A DNA stretch of 64,000 nt from a phage. This document shows positions 34,149 to 39,185 of the stretch, one piece after another. Position 1 is the first letter of the stretch, and the number at the start of each line of letters is the position of its first letter. The stretch is taken from sequence record PZ496580.1; one strand, written 5' to 3'. The position numbers were made by a program, and so were the translations under genes. The notes beneath the pieces are model-generated. The model searched no databases. It was not told where the DNA came from and saw only the letters and a program-made list of their open reading frames with translations.

Positions 34149-34340
34149 TTAGATTCCGGCGATCCTGCATAGAGTTCTTGTATTAGCACCAATCAGGATC
34201 GCATTAACGACAACCATTCCCCAATCAACCCACTGATTATTATAAATGCTAAACCCGTTTGCAAGACCAAATACAAGCATTCCGGTACACATACTCAGAG
34301 CAATAATCAACATCACGGTAAAACCAAATGCAAATCTCAT
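34149..34340 (-). CDS. small membrane protein (63 aa, 2 TM)
   Basis: Hydrophobic; first of tandem array next to endolysin. Confidence 0.4.
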   Translation of the reverse strand: MRFAFGFTVMLIIALSMCTGMLVFGLANGFSIYNNQWVDWGMVVVNAILIGANTRTLCRIAGI

Positions 34341-34341
34341 A

Positions 34342-34557
34342 TTATTTTCCTTTTCTCTGTTTACGTTTATAAAAGTAATACATTACCTCATCGCGTCCGG
34401 TGATCCAACATGCTAGGGCAGTAAACAGGTTTACAATTCCCAACACACCTACGGATGCGGCACTGTCAACAGACATAGGAACAGTAAAGGCCATAGCTAA
34501 CATAGCAATACCACAAATGACATTAAGCACCATTATAATAAGACCGAAGAAAACCAT
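34342..34557 (-). CDS. small membrane protein (71 aa, 2 TM)
   Basis: Hydrophobic; basic C-terminus KRKQRKGK. Confidence 0.4.
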   Translation of the reverse strand: MVFFGLIIMVLNVICGIAMLAMAFTVPMSVDSAASVGVLGIVNLFTALACWITGRDEVMYYFYKRKQRKGK

Positions 34558-34560
34558 TTT

Positions 34561-34752
34561 TCAATCCTCCCAAATAAGAAAACCAACAATAACACCCATG
34601 ATAAGAGAGGATGCACCGCTAATCAGACAACCCGCGCCCAGAGTTTCCCACCAGATCAGAGAAGCGACAATAACGCAGAATCCCCAGACTACCGCAATCA
34701 CAACATAGGCAAAAATCGCCCAAAACATATATTTGTTCATAATAAATCCCAT
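34561..34752 (-). CDS. small membrane protein (63 aa, 2 TM)
   Basis: Hydrophobic. Confidence 0.4.
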   Translation of the reverse strand: MGFIMNKYMFWAIFAYVVIAVVWGFCVIVASLIWWETLGAGCLISGASSLIMGVIVGFLIWED

Positions 34753-34925
34753 TCACCAATCAAATATGAAAATAGCCAAATAAACAGAAACGAGGCGATT
34801 GATCCGGCAAGCAAAATAATATTAGAGAATCCGCTGTTTATCCAGTCGATCAAACAGAATACACCAGTATAGAAGCATAATCCCATTACAAAGCATACTA
34901 TAAGCAACCATAGATAAAACGCCAT
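34737..34925 (-). CDS. small membrane protein (62 aa, 2 TM)
   Basis: Hydrophobic. Confidence 0.4.
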   Translation of the reverse strand: MAFYLWLLIVCFVMGLCFYTGVFCLIDWINSGFSNIILLAGSIASFLFIWLFSYLIGEWDLL

Positions 34926-34986
34926 AGAAAGCCCTCCAGTGAGCTAATTTAGTGCGGGTAGTACATTACCCTACCCGCATTGTTAA

Positions 34987-35145
34987 TCATCGCAGAGCGT
35001 GTTCTAGAACGATTCCACACCAACCGCTAACCACACCCAAACACACAGCAACAAGCAGATTCATTCGGTCTTTTGGAATCATCGCAAACAGAACAACACC
35101 CACACAGAAAGCCATTACCATAGCAGTTAACATTTGTTCAACCAT
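34987..35145 (-). CDS. small membrane protein (52 aa)
   Basis: Hand-translated MVEQMLTAMVMAFCVGVVLFAMIPKDRMNLLVAVCLGVVSGWCGIVLEHALR; AAGGTG Shine-Dalgarno; under 60 aa. Confidence 0.35.
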   Translation of the reverse strand: MVEQMLTAMVMAFCVGVVLFAMIPKDRMNLLVAVCLGVVSGWCGIVLEHALR

Positions 35146-35147
35146 TA

Positions 35148-35486
35148 TCACACCTTTAAAGTCATAGACGCATAAACATTAATACCAGGCCAGTTAGGAT
35201 CGCAATTATACTCAACATCCCACAAATAAAGCGGTTTAGATGTATCAGCCAAGTTTTTAAAATCTTCTACCCACATTTCAAGGCTATAGGATGGATAAAC
35301 TAGGCTATCATATCCTCCGTAACGTTGGCCTACTGATCTGTCAGTAAAAACTACCTCAAGATCCGGTAATTCTTTTTCAAGGATAACCGCCAGCGCATAA
35401 ATCAGACGGTCTTCCTTGTTACGCTGCCGTAGGACCGTTGTCAGTTGGTTTTTCTGGTTCACTAGCAAGCACCTCCACATTTTCAC
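35148..35486 (-). CDS. hypothetical protein (112 aa); start uncertain, possibly fused with upstream ORF
   Basis: Track start is GTG; no Shine-Dalgarno before first ATG (35480); 68-nt overlap with 35419-35739. Confidence 0.4.
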   Translation of the reverse strand: MKMWRCLLVNQKNQLTTVLRQRNKEDRLIYALAVILEKELPDLEVVFTDRSVGQRYGGYDSLVYPSYSLEMWVEDFKNLADTSKPLYLWDVEYNCDPNWPGINVYASMTLKV

Positions 35487-35739
35487 AGAATGAAATTTTC
35501 ACAGACACAATTTTACCATAAGTGAAGAATGAATATACATTATCGAGATATTCAACGTCACCTACAATCACATCAAACTGCGGATCAGCCACTGCCGCAA
35601 CATATTCTACCAGTTCATCAAGAGAATGCAACTTAATTTCATCAATTCGGCTGTATTTGGTTGCATCTTTAATTTTAAAACCACGTTCTTTCAGCTTATC
35701 AATCAGAATTTCACGCGGAGTTTCAAACAGTTTGCTCAT
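35419..35739 (-). CDS. hypothetical protein (106 aa)
   Basis: ORF; see frameshift finding. Confidence 0.45.
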   Translation of the reverse strand: MSKLFETPREILIDKLKERGFKIKDATKYSRIDEIKLHSLDELVEYVAAVADPQFDVIVGDVEYLDNVYSFFTYGKIVSVKISFCENVEVLASEPEKPTDNGPTAA

Positions 35740-35760
35740 AATATAATCCTAACATTAAAT

Positions 35761-35961
35761 CTAAAATTTGTTAACGACGAATTGCATAATTAGACTAATC
35801 ACAAACATTGCAAACCAAGTATAAATGCAACAGATAAAAGCTACATACAATTCAATCTGGTCAGAGAATACACCGGGTAAAAGCATTAGCAAAATAAAAA
35901 CAGTAAAGACGCTAGCGATACCCGCAACAAAACCAATATCATTTTTACTAATCGTCATCAA
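35761..35961 (-). CDS. small membrane protein (66 aa)
   Basis: Hydrophobic. Confidence 0.4.
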   Translation of the reverse strand: MMTISKNDIGFVAGIASVFTVFILLMLLPGVFSDQIELYVAFICCIYTWFAMFVISLIMQFVVNKF

Positions 35962-36155
35962 GTCACCGTTTTGTAAAGAAACACAATAAAATCCAAGACA
36001 AGAAAGACAGTGTAAATGATCATCGTCAAGACAGTAAACACTGTCAAATTTTCATCGTTAGTTAATTCATAGTCGCCCATCCATACAATCACAAGATATA
36101 GCATTGAAAGAATGGAAGCACCTACTAAGTTGAAAAACATATTCTTGAGCGTCAT
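35958..36155 (-). CDS. small membrane protein (65 aa)
   Basis: Hydrophobic. Confidence 0.4.
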   Translation of the reverse strand: MTLKNMFFNLVGASILSMLYLVIVWMGDYELTNDENLTVFTVLTMIIYTVFLVLDFIVFLYKTVT

Positions 36156-37704: not shown

Positions 37705-37728
37705 CAACTTTTTTAAAAAATTTAGGCA

Positions 37729-37755
37729 ATAAAAAAGCCACTCCGAAGAGTGGCT
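37729..37755 (-). terminator. rho-independent terminator (UUCG tetraloop)
   Basis: Perfect 8-bp stem agccactc/gagtggct, loop uucg on minus RNA, then U6. Confidence 0.65.
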
Positions 37756-37756
37756 T

Positions 37757-37900
37757 ATAGGGAAGGTAGCGAATCTTCCTTGTCTCCAACCTGCTAGCGG
37801 CCTAGCAAGTGAATGCTTTAGCGTACCGGATCACCCCATACGCTGTAATAAATGCGGCTAGGTGACGTCCAAATCATTCTAACCGCGCTGTCTTTAGTTC
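37757..37900 (-). ncRNA. structured noncoding region (candidate small RNA or structured 3' UTR)
   Basis: About 145 nt with no ORF, GC-richer than surroundings, three local hairpins; ends at the strong terminator; occupies the slot where T4 carries its tRNA/small-RNA cluster. Confidence 0.3.
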
Positions 37901-37904
37901 ATTA

Positions 37905-38123
37905 TTATTTATATCGCTTTCTCTCGCGACGTTTTTGATCTTCTTCCTTGATAGAGTTAAATGCATCAAAAAGACACATGACACTGATAATAAACATAAC
38001 CGTATTTTCTACGATATCCCACGGCTTCGCATCAGTACAGATCCCCCAAACGGTAAGAAATGCAAATAAGGCAGAAGAGATCACAAGCATGATACTTGCT
38101 AAGATATAAAAAGTCATTTTCAT
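37905..38123 (-). CDS. small membrane protein (72 aa)
   Basis: Hydrophobic N-terminus; basic C-terminus. Confidence 0.4.
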   Translation of the reverse strand: MKMTFYILASIMLVISSALFAFLTVWGICTDAKPWDIVENTVMFIISVMCLFDAFNSIKEEDQKRRERKRYK

Positions 38124-38314
38124 GGTTTTACCTCAATTCTTCGATATTCATCACACATCCACGCAGTAAGCAAGAATCCCAACACATAAGCAACAAAATA
38201 CGTTAATGCTTCTTCTGGTTCGGTGCTATGCGCCATCATCAGACCAGCGAGAAAGGTCTTAACAATTACATTTAAAATAATTAGCCACGCAAATAATTTC
38301 ATCGTTTGCCCCAT
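38120..38314 (-). CDS. small membrane protein (64 aa)
   Basis: Hydrophobic. Confidence 0.4.
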   Translation of the reverse strand: MGQTMKLFAWLIILNVIVKTFLAGLMMAHSTEPEEALTYFVAYVLGFLLTAWMCDEYRRIEVKP

Positions 38315-38538
38315 TTCGGACGAGTCTTTTCAAACTTATACATTCCGTAACAATCTCGAATCATCCACGTAACAAGAGCACCAGTCAACACAGACAATAC
38401 ACAGAAGAAGTAAAACGGTCCGGTTGCATTATCAACATGAGCAAGCCATGTAAAGAAAACACATGCAAGGAATGTAAAGAACATCATAAAGCACAAGAAA
38501 GCGAAATATTTTATACTACTCATAGCGCCACCATACAA
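38299..38538 (-). CDS. small membrane protein (79 aa)
   Basis: Hydrophobic. Confidence 0.4.
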   Translation of the reverse strand: MYGGAMSSIKYFAFLCFMMFFTFLACVFFTWLAHVDNATGPFYFFCVLSVLTGALVTWMIRDCYGMYKFEKTRPKWGKR

Positions 38539-38626
38539 CAGATCATAAGAAACCCCAACGCAATAAGAATTGCATCAAATTTAGTGAACTCCGGTCCACC
38601 TATCAACATCATTCGTTCCTGTTCAG

Positions 38627-38872
38627 TCATAGATCACAGATCCATCTTAAAGCACCACATAAAGCGATCAGAAGACTAGGTATAAACGAGACTAAAACAA
38701 GATTACAAAAATCATCTAAGGTAACGCCGGAATAGCTACCAACTGTAACAACACCGATCATCAGACACAGAAAGAAAACAAATGCAATCAGAAACAAAGT
38801 ATTGCTAAACAGTTTAGTGATCATTAGACACCCCACGACGGTCAATTTCAAAAACTTTCTTATCACCAACAA
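38627..38872 (-). CDS. small membrane protein (81 aa)
   Basis: Hydrophobic. Confidence 0.4.
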   Translation of the reverse strand: MLVIRKFLKLTVVGCLMITKLFSNTLFLIAFVFFLCLMIGVVTVGSYSGVTLDDFCNLVLVSFIPSLLIALCGALRWICDL

Positions 38873-39017
38873 AGCAGGTCACTACCGCCTCGTTGACTTC
38901 CGCAAATTGTTGTGTTACCCACTTAAGGTCAGATCGAAACAATGTTCTATTAATAACAAAACTTTTGCCGCTCTTATCCTTACCCATAAATTTTGCTTTA
39001 ACCATATCCAATTCCAT
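38814..39017 (-). CDS. hypothetical protein (67 aa)
   Basis: ORF. Confidence 0.35.
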   Translation of the reverse strand: MELDMVKAKFMGKDKSGKSFVINRTLFRSDLKWVTQQFAEVNEAVVTCFVGDKKVFEIDRRGVSNDH

Positions 39018-39026
39018 ATTATCACC

Positions 39027-39185
39027 TTATTTGCTAATCGCTAAACCTAATCCGAAGAGAGCACCCGACGCTACAGTATACCCGAAAGTTTCAAAGGCAG
39101 TAAAGATATCTAAGCCACCAGCTAACAGAGTTGCAGTAAACAGAGTACCAGCTACGAACATAAAAGTTTTACCGATAAATTTCAT
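39027..39185 (-). CDS. small membrane protein (52 aa)
   Basis: Hand-translated MKFIGKTFMFVAGTLFTATLLAGGLDIFTAFETFGYTVASGALFGLGLAISK; AGGAGA Shine-Dalgarno; downstream of promoter 39211-39245. Confidence 0.35.
   Translation of the reverse strand: MKFIGKTFMFVAGTLFTATLLAGGLDIFTAFETFGYTVASGALFGLGLAISK

Follow-up and report, generated by a model that had tools for sequence, protein, structure and literature searches.

The hyperplastic regions of the T4-type phages RB49 and phi1 are described, in the passages of Arbiol et al. 2010 (PMC2839356) that deal with them, as rich in orphan genes and in PeSL cassettes (a strong σ70 promoter plus a stem-loop) that promote modular shuffling. Those passages do not discuss the hydrophobicity or clustering of the open reading frames (ORFs) concerned and assign no function to them. 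Small membrane proteins of T4-type phages can act inside the bilayer: T4 Imm does so by attaching to the tape-measure protein at its membrane-inserting part (preprint 10.64898/2026.03.06.709160). Here we characterize 14 small genes for predicted membrane proteins that lie between an M15 endolysin gene and the antitoxin gene dmd, and just beyond dmd, at positions 34149–39185 of a 64,000-nucleotide stretch of phage DNA (sequence record PZ496580.1; the whole stretch is called the window below). Judged by its sequence, the window comes from a Krischvirus, the RB49 group of T4-type myoviruses of E. coli: its 33.7–39.3 kb part is syntenic with, and 95–96% identical to, 53 Krischvirus genomes (RB49, phi1, JSE, GEC-3S, ECD7 and others). 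The counterpart in RB49 is RB49p102–p125, a block on a single strand that corresponds to the minus strand of the window.

The 14 genes encode hydrophobic proteins of 36–74 amino acids (aa) and are all on the minus strand. They form runs that we call A (five genes), B (three) and C (five), with one more gene, D1, beyond dmd (Table 1). Thirteen encode proteins of about 52–74 aa with two transmembrane (TM) segments, and C4 encodes a 36-aa peptide with a single one. Two soluble orphan genes separate runs A and B, five soluble genes separate B and C, and dmd lies between C5 and D1. Within the runs the gaps are mostly −4 to +3 nucleotides (nt), and a Shine–Dalgarno (SD)-like sequence is present for each gene. 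An initial interpretation made from the letters and their ORFs (the sequence-only reading) had listed small ORFs at 34149–35145, 35761–36339 and 37905–39185, often with overlapping stops and starts and beginning immediately upstream of the endolysin gene. ORF listing and translation reproduced every ORF that it named; five of the overlaps are of the ATGA type, and the array does begin 29 nt upstream of the endolysin gene. Its "at least 13 consecutive ORFs" are real, but the count is 14 (the 36-aa gene at 38520–38630 had been missed) and they are not strictly consecutive, dmd lying within the third range. What it gave as an 81-aa ORF is a TTG-extended version of C5, which most likely has 65 aa and starts at ATG 38824, as in RB49.

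These ORFs are genuine, conserved protein-coding genes under purifying selection. At least 80% of a query made of the 14 concatenated proteins was found at one place in 54 genomes, where lengths, order, start sites and SD sequences are retained. Across 12 Krischvirus loci, nearly every ortholog recovered at full length is an intact ORF, and substitutions are skewed to third codon positions. The ratio of nonsynonymous to synonymous polymorphism (pN/pS) in these loci is 0.10–0.70, and no higher than 0.32 in ten of the 13 measurable genes; soluble neighbors gave 0.04–0.22. The pattern holds at greater distance. A divergent metagenomic contig carries the gene for the LPD25-domain protein, B3-B2-B1, the two soluble genes, A5 to A1 and the endolysin gene in unchanged order and lengths, with nonsynonymous to synonymous substitution rate ratios (dN/dS) of 0.07–0.34 in seven of eight genes and 0.85 in B1, at dS of up to 0.75. 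A second divergent metagenomic contig retains D1, dmd and C5 to C1. Conservation extends to loops and tails, for example WDIVEN in C1. Of the roughly 21 novel ORFs with TM predictions in RB49, about 14 are concentrated in 22 of its 274 genes (hypergeometric P about 3e-13).

Against the intactness seen in the 12 loci stands a differently called C3 in Makalu_001. In the same genome B1 and B2 are replaced by a single gene of 64–66 aa, about 33% identical to B1 (P0077 type; locus L006, 2759–2959). JSE, MIZ4/5, Whisky and SSG23 probably share this replacement, as they show the same lowered coverage, 12–13 of the 14 pieces of the concatenated query. B2 also differs in homopolymer length in W115, JK32, PTE-Eco09 and AV108, at a T run near codon 8 and at an A run before the stop. 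In AV108 an extra A joins B2 and B1 into a 131-aa ORF with four TM segments (locus L012, 2762–3157), possibly through a sequencing error; the fusion, if real, hints that the two proteins work jointly.

A Kyte–Doolittle scan gave a grand average of hydropathy (GRAVY) of 0.3–1.6 and found two hydrophobic segments in each protein; in A1 and D1 the second one shows only at a laxer threshold. Published TMHMM results for the RB49 orthologs agree, giving 13 two-TM proteins and one TM for the 36-aa gene, so that the small two-TM membrane proteins of the sequence-only reading are borne out. Two TM segments each are listed for ORFs 103c, 104c, 106c, 107c, 110c–112c, 118c–120c, 122c and 124c, and one for ORF121c; ORF 106c is printed twice, and one of these lines is probably 105c (Nolan 2006, PMC1524935, Additional file 2). 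That reading had allowed that the ORFs might prove to be neither conserved in related phages nor predicted to contain TM helices; conservation was found in the 12 loci and two divergent contigs, and the TMHMM results were positive. The genes and their TM predictions are already public (2003–2006), in GenBank since the RB49 genome and in the TM table of the 2006 supplement. RB49 annotation of p102–p125 reads endolysin, "hypothetical protein" and dmd, and the W115 record names eleven of the 14 "putative membrane protein". The array is real, though earlier annotation and TM prediction had already covered it.

The charge distribution allows a topology to be proposed. Lysine and arginine residues (K/R) are placed at the N-termini and above all in the C-terminal tails (7–8 K/R in A2, C1 and C3), and the central loops of 6–18 residues are acidic. 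An AlphaFold2 model of C1 is a helical hairpin (H2–29 and H34–71) with a pLDDT of 80.6. By the positive-inside rule, most of the proteins would be inner-membrane hairpins with both termini in the cytoplasm (N-in/C-in) and acidic periplasmic loops of 6–18 residues; A5 may have the inverted topology. Since they have almost no soluble mass, we infer that the proteins must act within the bilayer.

By homology searches, the 14 genes are orphans restricted to the genus. Each protein constitutes its own small PHROG of unknown function. Neither Pfam nor NCBIfam has a model that reaches threshold for any of them, the sub-threshold matches being the kind of noise that TM segments usually produce; no PDB sequence matched in phmmer, and a PADLOC scan of ten of the proteins (A1–A5, B1–B3, C1 and C2) found nothing. 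Foldseek with the C1 model returned generic TM hairpins only (E>0.9). When the 14 concatenated proteins were compared by tblastn with 50,697 phage records, 59 records matched, all of them Krischvirus. B1 and C1 had only relatives of 74–95% identity in large protein collections, and a B1 profile run against 1.84 billion representatives recovered nothing but the divergent B1 allele, fragments and a single hydrophobic protein of repetitive sequence. A concatenated run-A query found nothing in a collection of 5.8 billion proteins although the single proteins are present there, a property of the search and not evidence. An IMG/VR scan with the LPD25 protein found one locus only. Nor are the genes copies of one another: the clustering proposed by the sequence-only reading for the detection of paralogy showed none, as all-versus-all blastp gave E>0.1 in a tiny database and hhalign a maximum probability of 8%, and paralogy among the 14 is ruled out. 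The 90%-identity clusters of a large protein collection mix unrelated small hydrophobic proteins, the A2 cluster holding A3-type 59-aa sequences and the B3 cluster being represented by P0077, the B1 variant; cluster sizes for such proteins are not to be trusted at face value.

Orphan status of this kind raises the question of whether the genes are young or marginal. On that view, hydrophobic hairpins follow automatically from T-rich ORFs in a region prone to recombination, and the runs could be a "gene nursery" maintained by PeSL shuffling, with little function for individual members. The coding strand is indeed strongly T-rich at the small genes (AT skew +0.19 on the plus strand, 34–36 kb), as expected from hydrophobic coding. 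The lack of paralogs and of homologs outside the genus, the pN/pS of A4, C4, C5 and B1, which exceeds that of the soluble neighbors, and the frameshifted B2 of four genomes also fit this explanation. We nevertheless consider it improbable, given the purifying selection on most of the genes (pN/pS 0.10–0.32, and the dN/dS values on the divergent contig), the lengths, order, starts and SD sequences kept in 54 genomes and the divergent contigs, and the conserved loops and tails.

Five PeSL copies lie in or beside the region, at 31323–31405, 36671–36742, 37635–37723, 39182–39264 and 39626–39697. Their promoters match the consensus at 11 of 12 positions, and the depositors of GEC-3S independently annotated promoters and terminators at equivalent sites. 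From this arrangement we propose two transcription units. The first would run from P(39245) through D1, dmd, C5, C4, C3, C2 and C1 and stop at the terminator at 37756–37735. The second would run from P(36740) through the LPD25 gene, B3, B2, B1, the two soluble genes and A5 to A1, and then read into the endolysin gene. Because the PeSL promoter sequences are of the σ70 type, the small genes are probably expressed early, in the first minutes of infection.

How the endolysin gene would stay silent in this early transcript is suggested by the sequence at its junction with A1. Between the A1 stop and the endolysin start lies TCTAAATA (34153–34146), which differs from the late box at one position and is conserved in the 11 Krischvirus loci that were compared. 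It overlaps a hairpin that is stable in the read-through RNA (folding free energy −11.2 kcal/mol, z −5.2, 0/200 shuffles folding as well), and the hairpin cannot form in an RNA whose 5′ end lies near 34139, about 6 nt past TCTAAATA. Because the hairpin hides the SD sequence and AUG in read-through RNA and is lost from RNA starting near 34139, the endolysin appears to be silent in early read-through transcripts and to be turned on, without dependence on the upstream genes, by late transcription from a start of its own; the promoter-like box would thus override the silencing. Analogous layouts of box and hairpin are found at the endolysin genes of Morganella phage MP1 and Klebsiella phage Miro. 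The T4 gene e sequence has two late boxes directly upstream of its SD sequence, and a box combined with an SD-occluding hairpin is reportedly the arrangement of T4 gene e.

The position of run A next to an endolysin gene had led the sequence-only reading to name holins and antiholins among the candidates, and the small proteins could in principle be class II holins, pinholins or antiholins that time lysis together with the M15 endolysin. Class II holins and pinholins, such as S68 of phage 21, have about 70 aa, two TM domains, both termini in the cytoplasm and a basic C-terminus. A2, C1 and C3, and more weakly C2, share this architecture, with highly charged C-terminal tails in the first three. 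C1 begins Met-Lys-Met, which resembles the dual start of lambda S. Weak sub-threshold matches to Pfam holin families also occur (C3 against Phage_holin_3_6, E 0.076; A2, 0.22–0.9), and run A does end right before the endolysin gene.

Much else speaks against this account, however, and we regard it as very improbable. No holin family matches at threshold in Pfam or NCBIfam, the best score being 13.5 bits for Phage_holin_3_6 against a cut-off of 28.4. Unlike genes of a late lysis cassette, the runs are driven by predicted early σ70 promoters, and the endolysin gene is predicted to be translationally insulated from upstream transcripts. The window has four exact T4-type late boxes, TATAAATA, none of which serves the small genes; the only one in the small-gene region overlaps the C1 stop codon and points away from run C. 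A complete T4-type lysis system is encoded elsewhere in RB49: holin t lies after the tail-fiber genes (RB49p254, 154972–155628), antiholin rI is adjacent to tk, and pseT.3/pseT.2 are the spanins. The set of T-type holin, RI and spanins also appears in a recent Krischvirus description (PMC11767321). The small proteins (36–74 aa) also do not resemble holin T itself, which has about 218 aa, one TM domain and a large periplasmic domain and is encoded after the tail-fiber genes. Finally, the linkage to the endolysin gene is not general: in Miro, the 6 kb upstream of the M15 endolysin gene contain no membrane genes, and in MP1 three genes for soluble proteins plus a terminator intervene. Inspection of these two phages led us to reject a conserved module of small-TM array and M15 endolysin. 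The holin reading is therefore not supported; the small TM proteins are unlikely to be the lysis clock, a role that holin T, antiholin RI and the spanins would hold. Another of the exact late boxes lies at 27734–27741 (minus strand), about 33 nt upstream of the inferred rI ortholog (approximately 27399–27701, mapped from RB49 coordinates).

The reading that we favor, with a probability of roughly 0.55, is that the 14 genes encode early accessory inner-membrane proteins that guard the infected cell at its envelope, by superinfection exclusion, by neutralizing membrane-acting defense effectors, or by both; the probability of any single target is well below that figure. Superinfection exclusion and host takeover, which the sequence-only reading had also named as candidates, are plausible. 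The proteins would be made early, insert into the inner membrane mostly as N-in/C-in hairpins and work within it through binding to other embedded membrane proteins. They might thereby keep the DNA of superinfecting phages out of the cell, an effect that T4 Imm has through the tape-measure protein, or neutralize host defense effectors that act at the membrane. Several features of the locus argue for such a conflict function. By tblastn, the whole RB49 genome has no detectable homolog of Imm, Sp or 61.4 (TifA). In T4, dmd is followed by 61.4 and sp; T4 61.4 is tifA, whose product inhibits the ToxN toxin. In the window, dmd lies inside the operon of run C and D1, with a gene for a homolog of the anti-CBASS (cyclic-oligonucleotide-based antiphage signaling system) nuclease Acb1 (57B) two genes upstream. 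Run B, for its part, shows allele replacement and near-neutral dN/dS, like arms-race genes. The sole Sp-like tblastn match in RB49 (E 0.05) is inside gene 41 and was taken as spurious.

Other points weigh against this reading. No homology ties any of the 14 to a function, fourteen unrelated proteins are a lot for exclusion alone, and we know of no characterized small-TM anti-defense protein. The early timing is predicted from promoter sequence, and the read-through into the endolysin gene amounts to physical co-transcription of that gene with the small genes. The topology, too, is firm only in part, as A1, A3, A4, B1, B2 and D1 are too poorly charged for a firm call. SignalP 3.0 scored helix 1 as a signal peptide in seven of these proteins (PMC1524935), and some could therefore be processed to single-pass peptides of other topology.

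A bolder form of the same idea is that the runs constitute an "exclusion/anti-defense island" of TM microproteins co-expressed with dmd near acb1, a battery of intramembrane inhibitors in which each hairpin has a different target. Possible targets are effectors with TM segments from abortive-infection, CBASS or Pycsar-type systems; for competitor phages, they could be the channels by which their DNA enters, or their receptors. We put this forward as speculation that is rather unlikely to hold; if true, it would to our knowledge be a counter-defense class that lacks a characterized precedent and that evolves as genes arise de novo and are shuffled with PeSL elements.

An explanation without any role in competition or defense, which we rate as possible though rather unlikely, is that the hairpins modulate host physiology or contribute to host shut-off, by inhibiting inner-membrane machines (transporters, FtsH-type proteases, division or secretion components) or by partly depolarizing the membrane. 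Many small membrane proteins of bacteria and phages work in this way, and predicted early expression together with an inner-membrane hairpin architecture would suit it. The neighbors of the runs include metabolic or RNA-modifying early genes, namely regB, vs.6/GrcA and nrdC.11. Conserved core host targets, however, poorly match the genus-restricted distribution, the allele replacement in run B and its high dN/dS, and the presence of dmd in the operon and of acb1 nearby points to conflict functions instead.

Nothing found here would strongly surprise a T4 specialist. What is striking is that two-thirds of the TM-predicted orphan genes of the phage lie within 5 kb, that all 14 are under selection across the genus, and that one run lies in an antitoxin operon. 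This density, the conservation and the dmd/acb1 context make the array a reasonable experimental target. If the proteins do act in exclusion or counter-defense inside the membrane, they would provide a compact, easily cloned set for finding mechanisms of phage–phage and phage–host conflict, with relevance to phage-therapy cocktails that contain Krischvirus phages, as exclusion between members is a practical concern.

Further features of the region were noted alongside the small genes, whose coordinates are collected in Table 1. The 57B gene is labeled "57B" or "RNA ligase" in related records, yet its match is to Acb1, which makes it a second known counter-defense gene beside the dmd operon. 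Between the C1 stop and the terminator of the dmd/run-C operon is a candidate late small RNA (37735–37913, minus strand), made up of the exact late box TATAAATA at 37913–37906, about 165 nt of non-coding sequence and the terminator at 37756–37735. This stretch folds to −63.3 kcal/mol (z −4.2, 0/200 shuffles as good) and is 96–99.5% identical in 59 Krischvirus records, with its first 54 and last 75 nt invariant in the 12 loci; it is more conserved than the synonymous sites of the flanking genes. It is present in a single copy, matched no Rfam family, contains no tRNA and does not resemble T4 rnaC/rnaD. Between runs B and C, the genes for small soluble proteins (62, 73 and 61 aa; 36967–37380 and 37452–37642) have 74–82% DNA identity to hypothetical genes of coliphages of about 50 kb (tunus, JMPW2, GaoY1-9D and others), which we take to be T1-like; this identity suggests recent horizontal exchange between unrelated phage families. 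In some Krischvirus genomes an AP2/HNH homing-endonuclease gene lies directly downstream of the endolysin gene (JK32, locus L005, 731–1306; PTE-Eco09, locus L010, 1–216), and in genomes carrying this insertion the final ~40 nt of the endolysin gene are unalignable. Miro has a similar AP2 endonuclease gene two genes downstream of its endolysin gene.

Table 1 The small-gene runs, their neighbors and the associated control elements, in window coordinates
Feature	Position	Strand	Evidence
Endolysin, M15 (L-Ala-D-Glu peptidase type), 129 aa	33730..34119	minus	Pfam Peptidase_M15_4 E=4e-12; PHROG 465 endolysin E=8e-69; RB49 annotation
Late-promoter-like TCTAAATA overlapping the 5′ arm of a 14-bp hairpin (34150–34114) that pairs the endolysin SD and AUG	34114..34153	minus	Folding, conservation
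A1, 63 aa, two-TM hairpin	34149..34340	minus	RB49 ORF103c TMHMM 5–27, 37–54; pN/pS 0.22; PHROG 15016
A2, 71 aa, two TM, basic C-tail (7 K/R)	34342..34557	minus	Hydropathy, TMHMM of RB49 ortholog; pN/pS 0.10; PHROG 15232
A3, 59 aa, two TM	34561..34740	minus	Hydropathy; pN/pS 0.23; PHROG 16151
A4, 62 aa, two TM; stop region overlaps A3 start by 4 nt	34737..34925	minus	Hydropathy, TMHMM of ortholog; pN/pS 0.43; PHROG 19354
A5, 52 aa, two TM; the sole one with a basic loop (PKDRMN)	34987..35145	minus	Hydropathy, TMHMM of ortholog; pN/pS 0.22; PHROG 16035
Two soluble orphan genes, 104/112 aa and 106 aa	35148..35739	minus	GRAVY −0.3 and −0.2, no TM; PHROGs 16246 and 16584 (unknown function); pN/pS 0.06 and 0.11
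B1, 65 aa, two TM, fast-evolving	35761..35958	minus	Hydropathy; dN/dS 0.85 against divergent metagenomic contig (L023)
B2, 65 aa, two TM; homopolymer frameshift variants in four genomes	35958..36155	minus	Hydropathy; 12-locus comparison
B3, 60 aa, two TM	36157..36339	minus	Hydropathy, TMHMM of ortholog; pN/pS 0.32
LPD25-domain protein, 108 aa; first gene after promoter 36740–36712, upstream of runs B and A	36348..36674	minus	Pfam PF18840 E=3e-14
PeSL early-promoter cassette (putative): TTGACA, 17-nt spacer, CATAAT, 11/12 consensus	36671..36742 (promoter 36740–36712)	minus	Repeat and promoter match; GEC-3S annotation
Intrinsic terminator 37756–37735, then PeSL promoter 37704–37676; end of dmd/run-C operon	37635..37756	minus	GEC-3S annotation; TransTerm terminator in RB49 (Nolan 2006 file 5)
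C1, 72 aa, two TM, starts MKM, very basic C-tail (8 K/R)	37905..38123	minus	Hydropathy, TMHMM of ortholog, AlphaFold2; pN/pS 0.14
C2, 60–64 aa, two TM; probable start 38302	38120..38314	minus	Hydropathy
C3, 74 aa, two TM, basic C-tail	38299..38523	minus	Hydropathy; pN/pS 0.10
C4, 36 aa, single C-terminal TM (RB49p121 equivalent)	38520..38630	minus	RB49 ORF121c TM 13–35; PHROG 15282
C5, 65 aa, two TM; ATG 38824 as in RB49	38627..38824	minus	Hydropathy; pN/pS 0.59
dmd, soluble antitoxin, inside the third run	38814..39017	minus	Pfam Dmd E=8e-15; PHROG 2102
D1, 52 aa, glycine-rich, two TM; first gene of dmd operon	39027..39185	minus	Hydropathy, TMHMM of ortholog; pN/pS 0.10
PeSL early promoter (putative) with GGGGG/CCCCC stem-loop; would drive D1, dmd, C5 to C1	39182..39264	minus	Repeat and promoter match; GEC-3S annotation
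57B/Acb1 anti-CBASS nuclease homolog	39740..40204	minus	Pfam PF23474 Acb1 E=1.5e-51; two genes upstream of dmd operon

Other T4-type phages also have runs of membrane genes upstream of the endolysin gene, on the same strand and in the early region, namely e.2, e.3, e.4 and trna.4 of T4 and gp106 and gp109–gp112 of MP1. These proteins are mostly larger (61–176 aa) and have cytoplasmic tails, and those of MP1 are paralogous to one another (blastp E 1e-4 to 1e-7), whereas the Krischvirus genes are neither paralogous nor similar to them; homology to e.2–e.4, trna.4 or the MP1 array was rejected, as no similarity was found. The MP1 genes (locus L014, 8691–11539) share a C-terminal Y-x-K-x-C-R-G-K motif (CRGK), and T4 e.3 and e.4 end in similar Cys-Arg/Lys motifs; in T4, e.2–e.4 are at 9653–10694 and trna.4 at 15330–15515 of locus L021.

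The sequence-only reading had also proposed a comparison with T4 Imm, Sp and T. There is no sequence or profile similarity of the small proteins to Imm or Sp, and the genuine t is the one found elsewhere. For Imm, the 14 proteins gave no Pfam PF14373 hit at E<=1, blastp E>=1.2 and hhalign probabilities of at most 2.4%; none has similarity to T4 61.4. The likeness to Sp and 61.4 is one of position. T4 dmd is directly followed by 61.4 and sp, both small early conflict genes, and here dmd is directly followed by C5 to C1. Sp (Spackle), however, has a cleavable signal peptide and a soluble periplasmic domain of about 75 aa that binds the gp5 lysozyme, a layout that the small proteins lack. An Sp-like mechanism is unlikely, because their predicted periplasmic loops have only 6–18 residues.

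Imm is closer in kind. It has 83 aa, is early and inner-membrane, and has two strongly hydrophobic segments and a charged C-tail; by architecture and promoter context, the small proteins likewise look like small early inner-membrane proteins. They differ in that the N-terminus of Imm is reported to be periplasmic (10.64898/2026.03.06.709160), whereas most of the small proteins look N-in. Action confined to the bilayer would be compatible with an Imm-like mechanism, as Imm binds the membrane-inserting part of the tape-measure protein, and since Krischvirus phages have no recognizable imm, its function could be supplied by an analog.

The closest correspondence is with the PeSL-ORFan cassettes of RB49 and phi1, which are the same genomic system. 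There, according to the passages of PMC2839356 that describe them, repeats of about 70–100 bp flank small orphans, and close phages differ by insertion, deletion and replacement. Here, the promoter plus stem-loop element lies directly upstream of the small genes, and the orphan cargo is polymorphic in presence or by replacement, as seen in the matches limited to Krischvirus, the exchange of B1 and B2 in Makalu_001 and extra small ORFs in Skers. By these sequence features, the region clearly belongs to the PeSL-ORFan cassette system.

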